Assembly (NCBI RefSeq): GCF_003010495.1
Contig: NZ_CP027570.1
Coordinates: forward strand, 630,001 to 662,000
Source of the DNA: Megasphaera elsdenii DSM 20460
GTDB lineage: Bacteria; Bacillota; Negativicutes; Veillonellales; Megasphaeraceae
DNA: 32,000 nt
Direction: 5' to 3'
A program made the translations under genes and the position numbers. This document shows, piece by piece, positions 14,693 to 32,000 of this stretch; the stretch's first letter is position 1; every line of letters begins with the position of its first letter. The notes under the pieces are model-generated. The model was not told the origin of the DNA, made no database searches, and was given only the letters and a program-made list of their open reading frames with translations.

Positions 14693-15337
14693 CTAAAAGC
14701 CCAGATTTTCCCCAACCAAGATGACCTTGATACGGCCCTGGGGCTTACAGATCCGCGTCCGGACGACTTGGGCACAGACGCTGTCCGGTCGGATGCAGTG
14801 GCCACACATGCCGGTTTTGGCACAAGGCGTGCCGACGCCGGGGAAGCGTCCGATATTCTGCGGCGAAGCGACGGTATGCGCCCGTTCGATGCCCGCTTCG
14901 ACGGTCGGGACGACTTTATTCATACCGACGATGGCGATGACCTGTTTCGGCCCATAGCAAAGGGCGGCGACGCGGTTGCCGTTGCCATCGATATTGATGA
15001 GCTGCCCGTCCTGGACAGCGGCGTTGGTCCCCATGAGGAACGTATCGCAGAGCAGGGCCTTGCGCATCAGTTCGACCCGTTCTTCCGGCGTCTTGGCCGA
15101 ATCGCGGTCGATGACCGGATTGTGTTCCAATACGTAGGGCCGCAAGCCGATTTCATTGATGGATACGGAACCGCCCCAGGACACGACATCCGTTTCGGGA
15201 ATATACGAAATGGCCTGTTTCAAGGCTTCTTCCTTGGTCGGACAGTACACGGCTTCAAAGCCGCGGGCTGCGAATTTCTTGGCCACTAAGGGCCCCTTGA
15301 TGTCATACATGCGGTGCATCATATCTGTTCTATCCAT
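14693..15337 (-). CDS. LUD-domain (YkgG/LutC-like) protein
   Basis: 214 aa. The stretch LMGTNAAVQDGQLINIDGNGNRVAAL...IAIVGMNKVVP is typical of lactate-utilisation LUD/DUF162 domains. The RBS is AAAGGAGGAG. Confidence 0.8.
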   Translation of the reverse strand: MDRTDMMHRMYDIKGPLVAKKFAARGFEAVYCPTKEEALKQAISYIPETDVVSWGGSVSINEIGLRPYVLEHNPVIDRDSAKTPEERVELMRKALLCDTFLMGTNAAVQDGQLINIDGNGNRVAALCYGPKQVIAIVGMNKVVPTVEAGIERAHTVASPQNIGRFPGVGTPCAKTGMCGHCIRPDSVCAQVVRTRICKPQGRIKVILVGENLGF

Positions 15338-21396: not shown

Positions 21397-21447
21397 AAAA
21401 GATAAGCTGTCTTACAAAGGGTATCTTCATAAGACAGCTTATCTTTT
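21397..21447. terminator. long perfect hairpin terminator at the end of the low-GC minus-strand operon
   Basis: AAAAGATAAGCTGTCTTA (21397..21414) pairs with TAAGACAGCTTATCTTTT (21430..21447). It begins 2 nt after the TAA of the UGA-containing ORF, and both sides are A/T-rich. Confidence 0.65.
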
Positions 21448-21802: not shown

Positions 21803-22888
21803 TTATTTTCCTAATGCATCAGCCTTCATAATGGCATCATACACTTCATCTGCTGTAATGTCAGCACGCACATTTTTTGTAAACTGAGTTGGTACAGTAG
21901 CTGCTTCCGCAACCAGACGGATTTCTTCTTCTTTTACATCCTTAATCCCTAAATCAGCTAAGCATGAAGGAAGTCCTACCGATTTTATATAGTGTAATAC
22001 TGTGTCCCACTCATCTTTTGGTGCTTTTTCTAAAATAAGCTGCGCGAGTAATCCAAAAGCAACTTTTTCACCATGGGAAGCTCCGTGGGCCTGTGGGACA
22101 TGGGCAAAACCATCATTGATAGCATGAGCTGCCGCAAGGCCTCCCGACTCAAACCCGACACCACTAAGATAGACGCAGGCTTCAATGACCCGTTCCAAAG
22201 CAGAATTTACCTCCTGTTTTTCAACGGCATTGAGCGCTTCCAGTGAATCATTTAATAAAGTTTTATAACATAATGCAGCCAAGGCTAATGCCGTTGCTGA
22301 ACAAGCTCCACGAGCCATGGTTTTAGCCCCACTACGTTGGCAAGCACGTGCTTCAAAATAGGTAGATAAGGCATCCCCCATACCAGAGACCAAATATTTT
22401 TTAGGCGCTTGAGCGATAATCCCAGTATCGACTAAAACGAGATCCGGATTATGTTTCATCATTAAAGCCTTGATAACGACGCCCTGTTCATTGTAAATAA
22501 CAGCTACACTGCTGCACGGTGCATCATTAGAAGCAATAGTAGGGATAATAATCGTCGGCAAATCACCTAAATTAGTAGCCACGGCTTTAGCCGTATCCAG
22601 AGCTTTACCTCCACCTACGCCAATGATAGCATCACAGCCGTGCTGATAAGCTATATCTTGTGCATCAGCGATTGCCTTTTTAGAACATTCACCTTGAAAT
22701 TCAGCATAAAATACGGATTTATTCGCACTATTCAGAGCCTTGTCAATGCGTTCACCAATTCTTCGCTTATTATTAGGTGACAGCAAGACTAAAAAGCTAT
22801 TGCCCATTTTCTTAACATACTTCCCTAATTTATCCAACTCTCCATTGCCTTGCACATAATATCCCGGGGCTTTAATTCCAATCGTCAT
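21803..22888 (-). CDS. glycerol dehydrogenase-family (GldA-like) iron/zinc alcohol dehydrogenase
   Basis: 361 aa with GVGGGKALDTAK, PTIASNDAP, GMGDALSTYFEA, AAHAINDGF and HGEKVAFG. The physiological substrate is not deducible. Confidence 0.82.
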   Translation of the reverse strand: MTIGIKAPGYYVQGNGELDKLGKYVKKMGNSFLVLLSPNNKRRIGERIDKALNSANKSVFYAEFQGECSKKAIADAQDIAYQHGCDAIIGVGGGKALDTAKAVATNLGDLPTIIIPTIASNDAPCSSVAVIYNEQGVVIKALMMKHNPDLVLVDTGIIAQAPKKYLVSGMGDALSTYFEARACQRSGAKTMARGACSATALALAALCYKTLLNDSLEALNAVEKQEVNSALERVIEACVYLSGVGFESGGLAAAHAINDGFAHVPQAHGASHGEKVAFGLLAQLILEKAPKDEWDTVLHYIKSVGLPSCLADLGIKDVKEEEIRLVAEAATVPTQFTKNVRADITADEVYDAIMKADALGK

Positions 22889-25215: not shown

Positions 25216-26520
25216 TTATCCTTCAAACTTACAATGGAAGCGTTTTTCAAATTCTGCAATCAATCCTTCTCTAAAATCAGGATGGGCAATCTTAATGAGA
25301 GCAATAGCACGCTGCCGCAAAGTACGTCCTTTAAGAGGAGCGATACCAAATTCCGTAATAATATAGTCTACATCATTGCGGGAGGTCGTAACAGCAGCCC
25401 CTTCATCTAAGAGCGGCACAATCTTAGAAATCTTACCATGACCAGCAGTCGAAGGCATAGCAATAATGGCTTTACCACCCTTTGCACGAGATGCACCACG
25501 AACGAAGTCAACCTGACCGCCGACGCCGCTGAATTGTTTATAGCCAATCATTTCGGCATTGACCTGTCCCATCAAATCGACTTGCATAGCCGAGTTGATA
25601 GAGATGATATTGTCAATTTTAGCTACGACAAAGGGATCATTAGTGTAATCGACACGTTCCATTAATACATCGGGATTGTTATTTACAAAATCATACAGTT
25701 TCTTTGTCCCCATAAGGAAGCAAGAGACAAATTTCCCCTGGTCAATCGTCTTTTTCTTGTTCGTGATAACGCCTTTACGAGCCAAGTCGACAACGCCATC
25801 AGAGAACATTTCGGAATGAATCCCTAAATCCTTTTTATCTCCGAGGAAGGACAAGACAGCATCCGGAATAGCACCGATACCAAGCTGCAGCGTATCACCA
25901 TCATGAATCAGTGATGCTACATATTCCCCAATTTTATGTTCCGTTTCCCCAATTTTAGGCGGTTGCAATTCAATAAGGGGTTCATCTTTTTCGACGATAT
26001 AATCGATATCTTTTAAATTAATGCCATTCCCATAGGTATAGGGCATATTTTTGTTAATCTGTGCAATAACCAGCTTGGCAGCTTCTGCAGCCGGCTGTGT
26101 ATAGTCAACAGAAACCCCATAAGAGCAAATGCCATTTTCATCGGGTTCACTGAGCTGTAAAAAAGCGACGTCAACAGGTAAGGTACCATCTGTAAAGAGC
26201 TTGGGAATTTCATGGAAGAAGCACGGTGTATAATCTCCACGGCCTTCTTCTACGGCTTTGCGAGTTGAGCCACCTACGAACAGGGCATTATGGCGAAAAT
26301 GTTTTTCCATCCCCGGTTGGCAATAAGGAGCTTTCCCCATAGCAACCATATGAACAATTTCAACATTTTCAAGGCGATCTGCCTGGCGAACTAATTCATC
26401 TGTCAAAGCCTGCGCTTCACCACAAGCATGGGTGAAAACAATACGATTGCCGGATTGGACATGGCTTACAGCTTCTTCAACAGATACAATTTTTTCTGCA
26501 TATTCTTTTCTCCAATCCAT
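25216..26520 (-). CDS. abfT: 4-hydroxybutyrate CoA-transferase (acetyl-CoA hydrolase/transferase family)
   Basis: About 434 aa. MDWRKEYAEKIVSVEEAVSHVQSGNRIV, GEAQ, and GGQVDFVRGA near the C-terminal domain fit the Cat2/AbfT type, and it is adjacent to abfD. I trimmed the start to the ATG at 26520. Confidence 0.82.
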   Translation of the reverse strand: MDWRKEYAEKIVSVEEAVSHVQSGNRIVFTHACGEAQALTDELVRQADRLENVEIVHMVAMGKAPYCQPGMEKHFRHNALFVGGSTRKAVEEGRGDYTPCFFHEIPKLFTDGTLPVDVAFLQLSEPDENGICSYGVSVDYTQPAAEAAKLVIAQINKNMPYTYGNGINLKDIDYIVEKDEPLIELQPPKIGETEHKIGEYVASLIHDGDTLQLGIGAIPDAVLSFLGDKKDLGIHSEMFSDGVVDLARKGVITNKKKTIDQGKFVSCFLMGTKKLYDFVNNNPDVLMERVDYTNDPFVVAKIDNIISINSAMQVDLMGQVNAEMIGYKQFSGVGGQVDFVRGASRAKGGKAIIAMPSTAGHGKISKIVPLLDEGAAVTTSRNDVDYIITEFGIAPLKGRTLRQRAIALIKIAHPDFREGLIAEFEKRFHCKFEG

Positions 26521-26543
26521 TACACACACCTACTTTCGTATAA

Positions 26544-26679: not shown

Positions 26680-28131
26680 TTATTCTTCAATGTGTGCAAT
26701 AGCTTTAGCCAAGGCTTTCTTCATACGCAAGTTGCCCTGACGGGAAATCATGATACGCTGTGCCTGCGGCGAACCTGCACCGTGCATGGATTCTGTACGA
26801 TAACCAACAGCTGCCGTGCCGAGGCTGAGGTTTTCGATGAGGCGTAAGATTTTGAGACGATTTTCTGTCGATACATTATTAACGCCGCGGAGGTATTTAT
26901 CAATGTACGGCCCAATCTTCGGATCACGGAGGTCTTTTTCAGACGGTGCTGTAACCATCAAGCCACCAGCAATATCTTCGGCTAAACGGACGATTTCATA
27001 GGGGAAGCGCGTAACATTCTGTTTGCAGACGTTTGCCAGGAGCAAATCGATGAGATAGTTGCCTGATTCCGTTTTCGTACCCAATGCCGAGCAAGCAATA
27101 CCGCAAGCATACAGGGTTTCGTTGAGGTGCTGCATTTCAATGATTTTATCTTTAATATGGGAAGCTTTCGGACAGCCATTATAGTCAGCAGCAACCGCAG
27201 CAGCACCGATAAGGACGTCACCTACGCCAACTTTGCAGCCGCCATAGGACTGACGATGATAACCCGCGAAGCGTTCAACGAGGACGCCGGCAAATTCATA
27301 TTCTCCATTCAGATAAATATTTTCGTTCGGGATGAAGACATTATCAAAGATAACCAGAGCTTCCGTACCACCAAATTCAGGGTTGCCCGTATCCATCGGA
27401 GCGCCTTCCATTTTACGAGTATCGCAAGACTGACGGCCAACAATCATGAAAATACCTTCAGCATCTGTCGAGCAGGAGAAGCAGACTGCGTAGTCTTTGT
27501 CATCTTCGCCCATAGAGATGGTCGGCATGACGATGACTTCATGAGAGTTAATGAAACCAGTTTGGTGAGCTTTTGCCCCACGGACTACGATGCCGTCCGG
27601 ACGACGTTCTACAACATGGAGATAGAGGTCCGGATCTGCCTGTGCATGCGGAGCCAAACCACGGTCACCTTTCGGGTCTGTCATAGCGCCGTCAACGGTA
27701 AGGTCTTCCATCTGTACCCGTTTGAGGAATTTCATGAAGTTTTCATGGTATTTCGTGCCATATTTTTTATCCGTATCATACGTCGTGGAGAATACCGCAT
27801 TAAAAGCATCCATGCCAACGCAACGCTGGAAGCAGGAAGCCGTTTTCTGACCACACAGACGCTGCATTTTTACTTTATTCATCAAGTCCGTCGTGCTCTG
27901 ATGAATATGGGTGAAGCGGTTAACACGTTCGCCAGTGTACGGAGAGATTGCTGTCATCAGGTCCTGATATTCAGGCTGCTGAGCCAGATCATACGTCATG
28001 CGGACGGAGTTCATGGACGGACGGAGAATCGGATCATCTGCCGGACACGGAACTTTTTTACCAAACATGTAGACTTGTAAATTTTTCTTTCTCATGCTTT
28101 CGATGTACTGTTCGCCTGTCATTAATGCCAT
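26680..28131 (-). CDS. abfD: 4-hydroxybutyryl-CoA dehydratase / vinylacetyl-CoA delta-isomerase
   Basis: 483 aa. MALMTGEQYIESMRKKNLQVYMFGKKV... parallels the N-terminus of Clostridium aminobutyricum AbfD as I recall it. The size and the abfT neighbour both fit. Confidence 0.88.
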   Translation of the reverse strand: MALMTGEQYIESMRKKNLQVYMFGKKVPCPADDPILRPSMNSVRMTYDLAQQPEYQDLMTAISPYTGERVNRFTHIHQSTTDLMNKVKMQRLCGQKTASCFQRCVGMDAFNAVFSTTYDTDKKYGTKYHENFMKFLKRVQMEDLTVDGAMTDPKGDRGLAPHAQADPDLYLHVVERRPDGIVVRGAKAHQTGFINSHEVIVMPTISMGEDDKDYAVCFSCSTDAEGIFMIVGRQSCDTRKMEGAPMDTGNPEFGGTEALVIFDNVFIPNENIYLNGEYEFAGVLVERFAGYHRQSYGGCKVGVGDVLIGAAAVAADYNGCPKASHIKDKIIEMQHLNETLYACGIACSALGTKTESGNYLIDLLLANVCKQNVTRFPYEIVRLAEDIAGGLMVTAPSEKDLRDPKIGPYIDKYLRGVNNVSTENRLKILRLIENLSLGTAAVGYRTESMHGAGSPQAQRIMISRQGNLRMKKALAKAIAHIEE

Positions 28132-28211
28132 AATGAATCATCCTTTCTTCTTATCATATAATAAAGTTTTGACAGTAGGTTCACACGTTAGTGTGTTTTG
28201 CCTATAGTAAG

Positions 28212-28227
28212 AGCAAAAATCATGCCA
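28212..28227 (-). promoter_or_regulatory. candidate sigma-54 (-24/-12) promoter of the abfD operon
   Basis: Minus strand reads CTTGGCATG-ATTT-TTGCT-C, with TGGCAT at 28227..28222 and TTGCT at 28216..28212. Compared with the consensus TGGCACG-N4-TTGCW it has one mismatch. The predicted start is about 70 nt before ATG 28131. Confidence 0.5.
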
Positions 28228-28409
28228 AGTAGTGCCTTTAATATTTTTATTTTAATTTCTTCCGTGAAAAGCATAGCAACTATCCCATCTTTGAAACTTA
28301 AAAAAATTTTCTCCCTTATTTTGTGCTATATTTCACGTTATTTTTGTTATGTTTATAACGTTTTCCCGTTCCATTTTTGGCTCAAATATTTTGGTTTTTC
28401 GTTCCATAT

Positions 28410-28435
28410 ATGAAACAAATTACCATTTGTTTCAT
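28410..28435. promoter_or_regulatory. perfect 10-bp inverted repeat (candidate activator/operator site)
   Basis: ATGAAACAAA (28410..28419), TTACCA, TTTGTTTCAT (28426..28435). It lies about 185 bp upstream of the minus-strand -24 box and about 220 bp upstream of the plus-strand one. Confidence 0.4.
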
Positions 28436-28656
28436 TTTTAAAACAGTATACATCCTTATATTCGGGGATATTTTCTTTATTCCATCTCGTTTCTTGATAA
28501 AAAATATTCGTAAATCAATATATTTAAAAATATTATTTCATTTATCCTTTTACCCCAACTCTTTATATTTAAAACGTTTATGTAGCACTTTCGTCTTTCA
28601 TCACAGTTTAATTTGTGAATAACAGAACAAATAAATTCAGGCATTTCTTCCAATTT

Positions 28657-28672
28657 TGGCACGATAATTTCA
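28657..28672 (+). promoter_or_regulatory. weaker sigma-54-like -24/-12 element before the Nfu-like gene
   Basis: TGGCACG (28657..28663), ATAA, TTTCA (28668..28672). The -24 box is perfect, but the -12 box has TTTC instead of TTGC. It sits 41 nt before ATG 28713. A sigma-70 -10 (TATAAT, 28676..28681) is an alternative reading. Confidence 0.3.
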
Positions 28673-28712
28673 TATATATAATTAACTACTATAAGTAAGG
28701 ATGTGAATTACC

Positions 28713-29012
28713 ATGACTCTATCAATTCGAGAACAAATCGAAAAAGTCTTAGAAAAAGATGTCCGCCCTTCGCTTGCAGAACATCAAGGCGACGTCGTCA
28801 TTGTCGATTATGCTGATCACATTTTACGAATCCGTTTAACCGGTCAATGCAGCGGCTGTCCTTCAGCACAGCTGACGACAGAAGAATTAATCAGTGCAAA
28901 AGTCCGCGAAGCCATCGAAGACGTCCATGATGTCATTCTCGTCAGTGGCGTCAGCGATACACTGATTGCACAGGCTAAAGCCATTTTAAGAGAACGCCAT
29001 ACACAGAGGTGA
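28713..29012 (+). CDS. NifU C-terminal-domain (Nfu-like) Fe-S scaffold/carrier protein
   Basis: 99 aa. VRPSLAEHQGDV...RLTGQCSGCPSAQLT is the Nfu/NifU_C CxxC motif. Confidence 0.8.
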   Translation: MTLSIREQIEKVLEKDVRPSLAEHQGDVVIVDYADHILRIRLTGQCSGCPSAQLTTEELISAKVREAIEDVHDVILVSGVSDTLIAQAKAILRERHTQR

Positions 29013-29016
29013 ATCT

Positions 29017-29748
29017 ATGAAAATAGGGATAAAATACTGCGGCGGCTGTAATCCACGCTATGATCGCAGCCATGAAGTAGACAAACTAAAAAAAAGATTC
29101 CCCCAACACACGTTTACCTATGAAATAGAAAATACAGTTTGCGACATCTGCCTCCTCGTCTGTGGCTGCATGACGGCCTGTGCCGAGGAAACAGGGCTTG
29201 CCGCTCGAAAATTCAAAAAACTTTGTACACCACAACAATTTGCGGCTTTCGCCAAAGAATTAAAAGACGCACCTCAAGAAATGCCTGATACGAAGAAGTC
29301 TATTTACTTGGGAGCTGTTGCTACCATGGAAAAGACTTTCACAGAAGAAGATATCCAACAATTTGCAAAGCTAACCGGTGATTATGGAAAACTACATACA
29401 GATGCCGCATTTGCTGCAAAATATGGATTTGGTCGTCCTGTCGTCCACGGCATTTTGACAGGAAGTTTACTATCTTCGATTATGGGCACCACTTTGCCAG
29501 GAGCCGGAACCATTTTAATGGATGAACAATTGACATTTACAGCCCCGGTTTATGCAGGTGACACCATCACAGCTTCTATAAAACTAGTCCATGTCGAAGA
29601 AAAAAAACGCTGGTACATCGGAAAATTCACAGGCACCTGCAAAAAGTCAGATGGAACAGTAGCTGTAGAAGGTACGATTCACCAATTAATGATGAAGACC
29701 TTATTCACATACTGTAGAAACATTCAAAATAATCAATCATTAGAATAG
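29017..29748 (+). CDS. fusion protein: Cys-rich CGGC-like N-terminal module plus MaoC-like (R)-hydratase/dehydratase hotdog domain
   Basis: The first 56 residues hold 8 Cys (KYCGGCNPRYDR...VCDICLLVCGCMTAC). The C-terminal part has FAKLTGDYGKLHTDAAFAAKYGFGRPVVHGIL, the typical MaoC signature. Confidence 0.72.
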   Translation: MKIGIKYCGGCNPRYDRSHEVDKLKKRFPQHTFTYEIENTVCDICLLVCGCMTACAEETGLAARKFKKLCTPQQFAAFAKELKDAPQEMPDTKKSIYLGAVATMEKTFTEEDIQQFAKLTGDYGKLHTDAAFAAKYGFGRPVVHGILTGSLLSSIMGTTLPGAGTILMDEQLTFTAPVYAGDTITASIKLVHVEEKKRWYIGKFTGTCKKSDGTVAVEGTIHQLMMKTLFTYCRNIQNNQSLE

Positions 29749-29758
29749 GAGTATTATC

Positions 29759-29995
29759 ATGACAAATTTAGAAAAATACGACAACCTTTTTATGAACAGC
29801 TTCAAATTGAAAAAAGAAGATCTTCCCGGTTTAAAATATCGCAGCATAAAGTTGTGGGATTCAATGGGCCATATGAATTTGATGGAAGAAATGGAAGATA
29901 CTTTCGATATCTCTATTGATACCCCTGATGTCTTAGCATTCAGCTCTTATGAAAAAGGAATGGATATTTTGCGGAAATACGGAGTTGATATCTAA
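29759..29995 (+). CDS. acyl/peptidyl carrier protein-like (phosphopantetheine attachment)
   Basis: 78 aa. LWDSMGHMNLMEEMEDTF fits the D-S-(L/M) attachment motif and the helix II context. The RBS is AGGAG. Confidence 0.68.
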   Translation: MTNLEKYDNLFMNSFKLKKEDLPGLKYRSIKLWDSMGHMNLMEEMEDTFDISIDTPDVLAFSSYEKGMDILRKYGVDI

Positions 29996-29996
29996 T

Positions 29997-30665
29997 ATGC
30001 CTGTGGATATACACCTTCACTGCATCACAGATCCACTGACCCATAGTAATTGTTACATTCTCTCAGAAAAATCCCGCACACTTATCATTGATCCAAACTG
30101 TTACCAAGAAATCCATTCCTATCTTACGACTCATCAACTTGTTCCCGAGTATATCATTTTGACGCATGAGCACTGCGATCACATCGCAGCGCTCAATGAT
30201 ATGCGTAAGTATTATAGCTTAAAAGTACTTTGTAGTGCGGCATGCAGTCAAGGGATTCAAAGCACGACACTAAATATGACCCGTATCATGGAGACCTATT
30301 TATACTTTAAGAGCCAAGGGGAGCTCCAGGTCTCCTATCCCCCTTTTACTTGCCAAGCTGCCGATATCATTTTTGACAATACTTACTTAGCTACTTGGCA
30401 AAACCATACTATCTTTTGTATTACAGCACCCGGCCATACTCCAGGCAGCACCTGCATCATCATAGATGAAAAGATGTTATTTTCTGGCGACTACTTTATT
30501 CCTGGCGAAGAAGTCATCACCCGTCTTCCTGGTGGAGACGAAGAAACTTATGAGCAACAAGGAAAAGCCACTTTGCGTTGTCTGCCAACACCGATATTAA
30601 CTTATCCGGGCCATGGTGAACCATTTATATTGACACAGGAGGTGAAAAAAAAATATGGACTATAG
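29997..30665 (+). CDS. MBL-fold metallo-hydrolase
   Basis: Has the THEHCDH (HxHxDH) motif, a later PGHTPGS and a terminal GHG. I set the start at ATG 29997 (MPVDIHL), immediately after the carrier-protein stop. Confidence 0.78.
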   Translation: MPVDIHLHCITDPLTHSNCYILSEKSRTLIIDPNCYQEIHSYLTTHQLVPEYIILTHEHCDHIAALNDMRKYYSLKVLCSAACSQGIQSTTLNMTRIMETYLYFKSQGELQVSYPPFTCQAADIIFDNTYLATWQNHTIFCITAPGHTPGSTCIIIDEKMLFSGDYFIPGEEVITRLPGGDEETYEQQGKATLRCLPTPILTYPGHGEPFILTQEVKKKYGL

Positions 30666-31722
30666 TAATTGGTTGATGCAACCGCCTTACCATTGGACAC
30701 AGGACGAAAAAGAAGCCCATTACGTGCCTCTCTTATTCGAATTGACTTCTCACCACTGTCATTGCTGTCAACCTTATGGTCAAGCGATACAAACGCTGTA
30801 TGAGAAAAATAAAAGATATGACTCTTCCAACCAAATCCCAATGCTTCCTATTTCTTTATTTAAAACAGAAGAACTAAAAAGCATCCCTGATTCCGAAATT
30901 TTTAAAGTAATCACTTCGTCGGGAACATCGGGAGTGGCATCTCATTTATACCTCGACGCCTTTAACGCACAAAATCAACAATTGGCCTTATATAACATCG
31001 TGAAAGACTTTATTGGCTCCTCGCGACTCCCCATGTTGATTGTCGATACGCCGGATATATTAAAAAATCGAGACGCCTTTAATGCCCGCGGGGCAGCGGT
31101 CTTGGGCTTTTCCATCTTTGCTAAACGAAAATATTACGCATTAAAACCAGATCTATCCGTTGATTTGGAAAGCATCCGCACATTCATTCAGACATATCGT
31201 AATCAACCGGTCTTAATCTTTGGCTTTACTTTTATGATTTGGCAGTATCTTTGTGAAGCGCTGGCAAACTATCCAGGTTTAATTGATTTATCCAATGCAA
31301 TTTTAATCCACGGCGGAGGCTGGAAAAAAATGCAGGACCGCGCGGTTTCACCTCACGAGTATAAGAAACGGCTATATGAACAGTTCCAGATCCATAAAGT
31401 CCACAATTATTATGGCATGGCTGAACAAACAGGATGTATTTATATGGAATGTGAACAAGGCCATCTTCATGCCAGCATATTCTCCGATATTATCATTCGC
31501 AATCCAGAAAACTTTTCAGTCTGTCCCGTAGGAGAAACGGGCATTGTCCAAGTATTGACTCCACTGGCCACGTCCTATCCGGGTCATTCTATCCTGACAG
31601 AAGATATGGGCACCCTGTTAGGAATCGATGACTGCCCTTGTGGCCGTTTAGGAAAATATTTCCGCATTGATGGCCGCATGGCAAAAGCCGAAATAAGGGG
31701 GTGTAGTGATGCGCACAACTAA
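30655..31722 (+). CDS. LuxE-like acyl-protein synthetase (adenylate-forming)
   Basis: 355 aa. The N-terminus is followed by SSGTSG, and the length fits the LuxE/PaaK-like fold. The RBS is GGAGGTGA. It overlaps the MBL gene by 11 nt. Confidence 0.7.
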   Translation: MDYSNWLMQPPYHWTQDEKEAHYVPLLFELTSHHCHCCQPYGQAIQTLYEKNKRYDSSNQIPMLPISLFKTEELKSIPDSEIFKVITSSGTSGVASHLYLDAFNAQNQQLALYNIVKDFIGSSRLPMLIVDTPDILKNRDAFNARGAAVLGFSIFAKRKYYALKPDLSVDLESIRTFIQTYRNQPVLIFGFTFMIWQYLCEALANYPGLIDLSNAILIHGGGWKKMQDRAVSPHEYKKRLYEQFQIHKVHNYYGMAEQTGCIYMECEQGHLHASIFSDIIIRNPENFSVCPVGETGIVQVLTPLATSYPGHSILTEDMGTLLGIDDCPCGRLGKYFRIDGRMAKAEIRGCSDAHN

Positions 31723-32000
31723 AAGCTTCACGATACTTGCCGGTTCGATTCCAGAAAAAATTATGCCCCAACAACCTTTTTCTCCGCTAACCTTGCAGTT
31801 TTGCCAAGATTTCGCGCACCAATTACAACAACGGCCTATCGCCAAAGAAGAGCCTGACTGGGCCGCTTTCAGTTTTTGGCTGCGCCCGCGAAAATTAGAA
31901 AGTTATAGAAAACTACTCACTTTTCCTGAAAAAAGATTAGGCCGAGGATTGACCTTTCATATAGCGCCAGCGAATATGCCTACCATGTTTTTATATAGTT
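31709..32000 (+). CDS. LuxC-like acyl-CoA/acyl-protein reductase (N-terminal part; continues beyond the window)
   Basis: My translation from ATG 31709 is MRTTKSFTILAGSIPEKIMPQQPFSPLTLQFCQDFAHQLQQRPIAKEEPDWAAFSFWLRPRKLESYRKLLTFPEKRLGRGLTFHIAPANMPTMFLYS. It stays open to position 32000. HIAPANMP...F.YS resembles the LuxC family. It overlaps the LuxE-like gene by 14 nt. Confidence 0.6.
   Translation, partial: MRTTKSFTILAGSIPEKIMPQQPFSPLTLQFCQDFAHQLQQRPIAKEEPDWAAFSFWLRPRKLESYRKLLTFPEKRLGRGLTFHIAPANMPTMFLYS

Follow-up and report, generated by a model that had tools for sequence, protein, structure and literature searches.

What turns on the two operons that diverge from a 580-bp AT-rich spacer in Megasphaera elsdenii DSM 20460, one headed by abfD, a 4-hydroxybutyryl-CoA dehydratase-like gene, and the other by a NifU/Nfu-like gene (nifU) that precedes luxE and luxC? 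M. elsdenii is a major lactate consumer as well as a butyrate and caproate producer of the rumen and gut, and it is a candidate production strain. The spacer lies within a window of 32,000 nt, the whole stretch of DNA analysed here, to which all coordinates refer unless a locus is named by its L number; for sequence beyond the window end, contig HE576794.1 of the same strain (L004) was used. A first, sequence-only reading of the window had placed a sigma-54-type promoter before each operon and a palindrome between the two, and had suggested that the 4-hydroxybutyrate genes and the LuxE/LuxC cluster might form a single regulon. This suggestion is supported by the adjacent genes for sigma-54 and its activator, by conservation in relatives and by a published regulon of the activator XanR. 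On comparative sequence grounds, the spacer is very probably a control region that both operons of a small sigma-54 regulon share, its two divergent promoters being served by common activator sites.

The promoter facing abfD is the clearer of the two. On the minus strand, the motif CTTGGCATGATTTTTGCTC (28229..28211) stands about 70 nt before abfD, just as first described, and its core (28227..28212) is an exact match to the consensus TGGCAY-N5-TTGCW. Its GG (28226/28225) and GC (28214/28213) show the 10-bp doublet spacing of sigma-54 promoters, and transcription is predicted to start at ~28201, leaving a leader of ~70 nt. No other exact match occurs in the window, where 0.09 would be expected. 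When one mismatch is tolerated only two matches are found, the abfD- and nifU-side sites, both within the one divergent spacer and each oriented towards its gene. A weight matrix trained on 22 Clostridiales promoters from Nie et al. (2019), with training scores of 20.4–29.7 bits, gives the same picture: among all positions on both strands of the window, the abfD side ranks first (21.3 bits, within the training range) and the nifU side second (16.2 bits), ahead of a third-best position at 13.1 bits and a shuffled-window best of 12.2 ± 2.5 bits. A standard sigma-70 scan allowing spacers of 16–18 bp found nothing on the correct strand for either gene, its two matches pointing the wrong way.

How well are these elements kept in relatives? 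Activator homologues at 87, 84, and 76% identity were fetched and one genome per species was then scanned, yielding 16 distinct loci, DSM 20460 included, in which abfD diverges from a cluster running from nifU to the activator gene. Most belong to Megasphaera (M. massiliensis, M. cerevisiae, M. hutchinsoni, M. lornae and uncultured lineages), with one metagenome-assembled genome (MAG) labelled Pelosinus and one labelled Lachnospiraceae. AbfD is 90–97% identical across the Megasphaera-type loci, and within M. elsdenii the DSM 20460 locus has a spacer identical to that of the window, as do 12 of the 14 other loci fetched at that point. In alignments the spacer is poorly conserved and rich in indels, with peaks at the two promoters, at the ribosome-binding sites, and over a central block (~28364–28446). 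The abfD-side promoter matches the consensus exactly in 14 of the 16 spacers and with one mismatch in another; in the last locus, abfD is truncated. Altogether, the 8.8 kb of the 16 spacers contain 24 exact-consensus sites, vs. 2 in the 310 kb of these loci outside them; of the latter, one serves an additional abfD copy that stands in tandem with the first in L020.

The nifU side requires more care. The motif TGGCACGATAATTTCA (28657..28672, plus strand) does combine a perfect −24 element with a degenerate −12 element, as had been read from the letters, the single mismatch being TTTC for TTGC. The GG and the C of the −12 element are kept and a T occupies −13, a partial sigma-54 signature from which a start at ~28683 and a leader of ~30 nt are predicted. 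At the orthologous position, 10 of the 16 related spacers carry the exact consensus (e.g., TGGCACGTTTATTGCT), and in the elsdenii/massiliensis clade TTTC has become fixed; overall, both promoters and the central sites are conserved across the related spacers. Within the TTTC clade, one substitution, in L020, is a first-position T-to-C change and all the others affect unconstrained N or Y positions (TGGCATGATAATTTCA, TGGCACAATTATTTCA), a pattern from which the element appears to be still under selection. In M. elsdenii, sigma-54 dependence is nevertheless less certain for nifU than for abfD, because the nifU element has no G at −13 and scores under the threshold. Speculatively, the T at −13 may make this promoter weaker or leakier. 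A conserved block, ATATATATAATTA, lies downstream of the −12 element.

Between the two promoters lie three predicted activator sites, termed 0, A and B, centred at ~28376, 28409 and 28437, with spacings of 33 bp (0–A) and 28 bp (A–B). Sites A and B are the only exact occurrences of GTTNCA-N4-TNNAAC in the window, vs. 0.14 expected. With up to one mismatch, this pattern reaches 3.4 per kb in the 16 spacers against 0.19 per kb outside, or 30 matches against 2.3 ± 1.4 in shuffled spacers. The positions GTT..A....T..AACA of site A are invariant across four species, site B recurs identically upstream of the second abfD copy in L020, and the sites of relatives include GTTGCATTTTTGCACC and GTTGCGAAAATGCAAC. 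The direct repeat CGTTCCAT, reported earlier at 28367 and 28400, is present and corresponds to the left halves of sites 0 and A. Across the 16 related spacers, the centre carries two or three such 16-bp sites. With respect to the abfD promoter, the sites of the window are located 150–210 bp upstream of its −24 GG. In L020 (1–2617), the two abfD copies stand in tandem, the second with its own exact sigma-54 promoter (730–745) and two exact-pattern sites upstream.

Which proteins would act on these elements? LuxE and AbfD are unchanged on many contigs, among them HE576794.1, and on contigs with identical LuxE and AbfD the plus-strand order past the window is luxC, the AMP ligase gene, rpoN, a 160-bp gap, the activator gene, and genes for a flavin mononucleotide (FMN)-dependent dehydrogenase and a short-chain dehydrogenase/reductase (SDR). 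The rpoN gene, whose presence in the genome was crucial to the proposal, encodes a protein that reaches 314 bits against a cut-off of 277 for TIGR02395, contains all three Pfam domains and can be aligned along its length to sigma-54 proteins of solved structure, the RpoN box included (SRRLIQKYR vs. ARRTVAKYR). The sequence-only reading was correct in stating that no enhancer-binding protein is encoded in the window, and one does occur just past 32 kb, in the same plus-strand cluster, with the GAFTGA motif and a Walker A motif (GETGVGKE); the checks for rpoN and for an enhancer-binding protein thus both turn out in favour of the proposal. From nifU to rpoN the genes overlap or are separated by 11 bp at most (5 bp in front of rpoN), and no convincing terminator was detected between nifU and the end of rpoN. 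The activator gene appears to have its own sigma-70-type promoter in the rpoN–activator spacer (L004 14959–15117): an extended −10 element, TGTTATAAT (15022–15030), is conserved in the elsdenii clade, and two other clades carry TTGACA-17-GATACT. A GC-rich hairpin (L004 15067–15084) directly precedes the activator start codon.

Similar arrangements are found in more distant bacteria. Activator homologues with 43–52% identity adjoin abfD-nifU in MAGs of Evtepia, Bilophila and a betaproteobacterium, with the same motif and a sigma-54 promoter: GTTTCATTTTTCCAAC, plus TGGTACAATAATTGCT, in Evtepia; GTTTCAAACTTGAAAC and GTTTCATAAATAAAAC, plus TGGCATTGAATTTGCT, in Bilophila; and GTTGCGTATTTGCAAC, GTTGCATTAGTGCAAC and GTCGCATTATCGCAAC, plus TGGCATGAATCTTGAT, in the betaproteobacterium. 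Independently, comparative genomics had predicted a XanR regulon in Clostridium (Nie, Dong and Yang, 2019, BMC Genomics 20:565; PMC6615313). Its activators (Cbei_2099, CKL_3021 and CTK_RS03630) were assigned the abfD-nifU-CoA transferase genes and acp-caiC(AMP ligase)-luxE-luxC, with promoters such as TTGGCACGCTTATTGCTTT and GTGGCATGATAATTGCTTT and sites such as GTTGCGTTTTTGCAAC, GTTGCATTAATGCAAT and TATGCAAAATTGCAAC, found at −123 to −287 from the start codons (PMC6615313). The Megasphaera gene content matches these target sets (Table 1 and Table S3 of PMC6615313), with the activator gene adjacent in Megasphaera. The promoter type is also shared, down to the GATAA spacer of the C. kluyveri luxEC promoter GTGGCATGATAATTGCTTT, and so is the presence upstream of the promoter of several 16-bp palindromic sites resembling GTTGCA-N4-TGCAAC, a motif to which the site 0 ortholog of the L017 clade (GTTGCATTTTTGCACC/GCATC) comes close. 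The differences are that the host is a Negativicute, outside the coverage of that study, that in M. elsdenii the half-sites read GTTYCA/TRAAAC, with a relaxed G/C in the middle of each, and that nifU heads the luxEC operon in Megasphaera while it follows abfD in Clostridium. The Megasphaera locus has its two operons diverging around one site array, and it has rpoN embedded in a predicted target operon. Target genes and site motif taken together support the view that this is a Negativicutes member of a XanR-type regulon. Since Nie et al. (2019) had predicted the same targets and motif, the idea of one regulon was already in the literature for Clostridium; new here are the shared divergent control region and the embedded rpoN. 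A regulon predicted only in Clostridium would thereby extend to the Negativicutes and, by linkage and motif, to Desulfovibrionaceae and a betaproteobacterium. In a 2025 survey, the orthologous group of AbfD is placed under sigma-54 control in Clostridia, and rpoN genes behind sigma-54 promoters are found to be enriched in several classes. A literature search for sigma-54 or rpoN in Megasphaera returned no paper and no mutants.

Several observations weigh against this interpretation of the spacer. By count alone, two matches with at most one mismatch are no enrichment over the 2.77 expected in the window. The nifU promoter scores 16.2 bits where the weakest training promoter has 20.4, its nearly invariant −13 G being replaced by T, and it is overlapped by a sigma-70-like pair, TTGGCA (28656–61) and TATAAT (28677–82), separated by a poor spacer of 15 bp. 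Site 0 is degenerate in M. elsdenii. On the nifU side, 220–285 bp separate the sites from the −24 GG, a distance that reaches or exceeds the upper limit of the published range (100–250 bp). The activator reaches no NCBIfam equivalog, the best being PrdR with 422 bits against a cut-off of 795. As for a basal rpoN promoter, the search returned one 9/12 sigma-70-like match inside the AMP ligase gene (L004 13164–13192), no better than chance. Finally, some M. elsdenii contigs combine intact target genes with a frameshifted activator, and some of these also with a broken rpoN; in strains with a frameshifted activator, the targets are either silent or expressed in another way.

These facts bear first on the possibility that only the abfD side depends on sigma-54, the nifU element being a decayed relic and its operon being read by the housekeeping polymerase from TTGGCA/TATAAT or another AT-rich promoter. 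Such a relic would explain the loss of the −13 G and a score below every training promoter, it fits with the conserved ATATATATAATTA block and the overlapping sigma-70-like pair, and it would solve the bootstrap problem posed by an rpoN gene behind a sigma-54 promoter. However, a 15-bp spacer is short for a sigma-70 pair, and the scan with 16–18 bp spacers finds nothing on the nifU strand. Moreover, the element of the TTTC clade is otherwise intact, the single L020 change aside, which is the pattern expected of selection on a sigma-54 site, and sister clades have the exact consensus at the same place. A relic is thus rather unlikely, and a weakened sigma-54 promoter remains the preferred reading of the nifU side.

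What is the unit recognized in the centre of the spacer? The perfect palindrome ATGAAACAAA-N6-TTTGTTTCAT at 28410..28435, which had caught the attention of the sequence-only reading, exists exactly where it was described, and as a perfect 10-bp inverted repeat, invariant in the first 16 M. elsdenii loci, it could be thought of as a single 26-bp site for one activator dimer. It arises, however, where two neighbouring sites meet, one arm being the right half of site A and the other the left half of site B. It is not a conserved unit, because its exact form is restricted to M. elsdenii (16/16 loci, vs. 0/86 of the other loci, L017–L102) and only the AACA…TGTT cores persist in other species, where sites A and B account for them equally well. 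The 16-bp register, for its part, fits the published XanR motif and the sites of distant phyla, and its pattern is strongly enriched in the spacers. A single-palindrome site is therefore very improbable, and the comparison supports an array of 16-bp GTTNCA-N4-TNNAAC sites as the functional unit.

Could these repeats instead bind another kind of regulator, such as the redox repressor Rex or a catabolite regulator? Rex controls butyrate pathways in clostridia. The TGTT…AACA cores resemble the Rex operator TTGTTAANNNNTTAACAA, a string that the literature ties to Rex, mostly in Clostridia. However, this operator (TTGTTAA-N4-TTAACAA) has 8 nt between TGTT and AACA, compared with 10 nt between TGTT/CGTT and AACA in sites A and B; in addition, the motif and the activator gene go together across phyla, and the motif equals the one assigned to XanR. 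Recognition by a regulator other than the sigma-54 activator is hardly to be expected. As for a catabolite-responsive element, the cre-like sequence at 28264–28277 has three mismatches, the central CG included, as judged by eye. That all these motifs are mere chance matches in AT-rich DNA can be dismissed, for even if ~2.77 matches with at most one mismatch are expected in 32 kb, chance would not explain their position, orientation and weight-matrix ranks, their conservation in 16 spacers and several phyla, or the adjacent rpoN and activator genes.

If the spacer is indeed a shared sigma-54 control region, its operation can be pictured as follows. Sigma-54 polymerase would bind the consensus promoter facing abfD and the promoter facing nifU, weakened at −13, while the activator would be made constitutively from its own sigma-70-type promoter. 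Through its PAS domain, this PAS/AAA+/HTH (helix-turn-helix) protein from the nifU-side cluster would sense a small molecule of the 4-hydroxybutyrate route (4-hydroxybutyrate itself, succinate semialdehyde and a related acid being guesses), and it would occupy the central sites. Oligomerizing on the array, it would loop the AT-rich DNA in both directions and open both promoters with ATP. The result would be the co-induction of the abfD-CoA transferase-permease-hypothetical protein-alcohol dehydrogenase operon, which would lead from 4-hydroxybutyrate to crotonyl-CoA and butyrate, and of the nifU-maoC-acp-metallo-beta-lactamase-luxE-luxC-AMP ligase-rpoN operon. Because rpoN sits inside its own predicted target operon, induction would also raise the level of sigma-54 and so close a positive feedback loop, for which some basal rpoN expression would be needed.

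A probable single inducible sigma-54 unit would offer a testable handle on when the 4-hydroxybutyrate route to butyrate is used, and it may provide a compact, tight promoter/activator pair for engineering. It would also link the uncharacterised acp-ligase-LuxE-LuxC pathway physiologically to 4-hydroxybutyrate metabolism. Parts of this arrangement have counterparts elsewhere. In Escherichia coli, zraP and zraSR are expressed from divergent sigma-54 promoters with ZraR sites in the centre, so that, as proposed here, one central array serves two divergent promoters of which one drives regulatory genes. There, however, the activator is a two-component response regulator for metals, while Megasphaera has a one-component PAS protein; and in Megasphaera it is rpoN, not the activator, on which feedback would act (ZraR autoregulation is mentioned in PMC12316311). 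A precedent for feedback on rpoN may be the nifU2-rpoN superoperon of Rhodobacter capsulatus (Cullen et al., 1994, as related in PMC6925177), which belongs to nitrogen fixation and has NifA as its activator. In that superoperon a nifU-type gene precedes rpoN, and expression depends on an activator and on sigma-54, so that the sigma factor amplifies its own synthesis. A weak constitutive promoter directly upstream of rpoN, which supplies the first sigma-54, is documented there; no equivalent was identified in Megasphaera, where seven genes separate the sigma-54 promoter from rpoN.

Table 1. Coordinates of the predicted control elements and of the genes around them. Positions beyond 32,000 are window equivalents derived from L004.
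Feature	Position	Strand	Basis or remark
Sigma-54 (−24/−12) promoter of abfD operon, predicted; core TGGCATGATTTTTGCT	28212..28227	−	Exact TGGCAY-N5-TTGCW match
Sigma-54-type promoter of nifU…rpoN operon, predicted; TGGCACGATAATTTCA	28657..28672	+	Perfect −24; −12 is TTTC (T for G at −13)
Predicted activator site 0, GTTCCATTTTTGGCTC	28368..28383		Right half degenerate; conserved alignment block
Predicted activator site A, GTTCCATATATGAAAC	28401..28416		16-bp imperfect palindrome; exact GTTNCA-N4-TNNAAC
Predicted activator site B, GTTTCATTTTTAAAAC	28429..28444		Exact GTTNCA-N4-TNNAAC; conservation peak
abfD-like gene (4-hydroxybutyryl-CoA dehydratase family, HpaB_N/HpaB)	26680..28131	−	Pfam; first gene of minus operon
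CoA-transferase, acetyl-CoA hydrolase/transferase family (4-hydroxybutyrate or butyryl-CoA transferase type)	25216..26529	−	Pfam and NCBIfam
Putative permease, 482 aa	23626..25074	−	Weak Pfam match to Xan_ur_permease
Hypothetical protein, 204 aa	22977..23591	−	Open reading frame (ORF) of minus operon
Iron-containing alcohol dehydrogenase	21803..22888	−	Pfam; last gene of abfD operon
Strong intrinsic terminator, 20-bp stem and T run	21400..21444	−	Terminator scan; end of abfD operon
NifU/Nfu-like gene	28713..29012	+	Pfam PF01106; heads plus operon
AF_0334/MaoC-dehydratase fusion protein	29017..29748	+	Pfam
Acyl-carrier-like protein, 78 aa (“acp” of acp-caiC-luxEC)	29759..29995	+	Weak PP-binding matches
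Metallo-beta-lactamase-fold protein	29949..30665	+	Pfam
LuxE-type acyl-protein synthetase	30655..31722	+	Pfam PF04443
LuxC-type acyl-CoA reductase	31709..32000	+	Cut by window end
AMP ligase	32911–34329	+	From L004; corresponds to caiC
rpoN, 425 aa	34335–35612	+	2.3 kb past window end; last gene of nifU operon
Activator, 487 aa, PAS/Sigma54_activat (AAA+)/HTH	35772–37235	+	3.8 kb past window end

Where does this cluster come from? At 20.8 kb of the window, the GC content falls from ~55% to ~42% and it stays low as far as ~18–20 kb of L004, a stretch that spans the whole abfD/luxEC/rpoN/activator cluster; this drop suggests a horizontally acquired island of ~18–20 kb. In the L004 island no further sigma-54 promoter (for example before the FMN dehydrogenase, SDR or permease genes) was detected with up to one mismatch. 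In some strains, transposase or integrase genes adjoin the cluster (L008 18639–19844, L013 17007–17615), and a preprint describes an M. elsdenii strain without abfD and cat1.

The activator gene is itself prone to change. The linker between its AAA+ and HTH domains is encoded in part by a C tract (L004 16389–16400, window equivalent ~37043–37054), which reads CCCTCCCCC in 15 loci. In other M. elsdenii contigs (L103–L114), the tract is an uninterrupted C7 (8 loci), C11 (3 loci) or C13-14 (1 locus), and each of these variants puts the HTH out of frame, giving a protein of 432 or 449 aa and a separate HTH ORF of 42 aa. Such variants could reflect phase variation or pseudogenisation, and the longest tracts could also be errors of assembly. 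In four of these contigs rpoN is also broken, at codons ~114–120, by an A8-to-A7 frameshift in L105 and by GAA-to-TAA nonsense changes in L106, L108 and L113. In the full-length L111, L112 and L114, where the activator is frameshifted and rpoN intact, abfD, nifU…luxEC, both promoters and all three sites are intact; on the two C7 contigs that are full-length and keep rpoN intact, the control region differs at only 2/581 positions, next to intact target genes.

Variation of the regulatory pair is also seen between species. In L023/L029/L035, identity to the window strain is 71/59/52% for RpoN, 87/76/70% for the activator and 97/92/93% for AbfD, RpoN thus diverging the fastest. Three lineages, L033, L034 (M. 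hutchinsoni) and L058 (M. lornae), have both exact-consensus promoters and the activator, with no rpoN between the AMP ligase and activator genes, and sigma-54 must therefore be encoded elsewhere in these genomes. Taken together, such observations as the decay of activator and rpoN, the clusters devoid of rpoN and the fast divergence of RpoN suggest a regulatory pair that can be dispensed with and that perhaps serves this cluster alone; they may also point to phase variation. Much more tentatively, the whole could be a self-contained, horizontally acquired sigma-54 cassette of ~18–20 kb, with the sole rpoN of M. elsdenii serving one activator and two promoters, self-amplifying from the nifU-side promoter, and switched off in part of the natural population by changes in poly-C length followed by decay of rpoN; this scenario is less likely than not. 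If it were true, sigma-54 would here be a dedicated, mobile, phase-variable regulator of one pathway, not a global alternative sigma factor. In any case, the embedded rpoN and the frameshift-prone activator are starting points for understanding the spread and decay of small sigma-54 modules.

Other loci show different associations of these genes. In two Clostridia MAGs (L038 8495–11419 and L039 8484–11428), a distant rpoN (26% identity) stands divergently beside an activator homologue with 48% identity, so that rpoN and activator are neighbours in other genera than Megasphaera as well; at the thresholds used, these loci gave no match to the promoter or to the site pattern. In a Megasphaera MAG (L041 1–12000), unrelated genes take the place of abfD…luxC; what is left of the cluster is a 3′ remnant of the AMP ligase gene, rpoN in intact form and a split activator, and the vicinity contains neither a sigma-54 promoter nor an activator site.

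As regards the proteins of the two operons, the putative permease has a homologue, 70% identical, that precedes abfD in the betaproteobacterial locus L042. The 204-aa hypothetical protein matched no family in a family search. The 78-aa ORF of the plus operon gives PP-binding E-values of 0.017–0.034, below the Pfam cut-offs, and has the DSM serine motif, which makes it weakly similar to acyl carrier proteins.

The spacer itself was considered for other functions. An Rfam scan of 27900–28900 returned no structured RNA at E-values up to 1, and coding potential (an 81-aa TTG ORF at 28377–28622 and a 63-aa ORF called on some contigs) was set aside, large indels crossing both frames in the alignment. 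Two further blocks are moderately conserved: GAAAAGCATAGCAACTATCCCATC (28258–28290), between the abfD promoter and the activator sites, and TTATATTTAAAACGTTTAT (28563–28580), ~80 bp upstream of the nifU promoter and a direct repeat of 28347–28363. Both could be sites for a bending protein or for a second regulator. Lastly, the predicted abfD leader contains the hairpin CACAC-GTTA-GTGTG (28182–28195) at +7 to +20, which may be a 5′ stabilising stem; at the same leader position, L022 carries a different hairpin, CACG-ATAA-CGTG.

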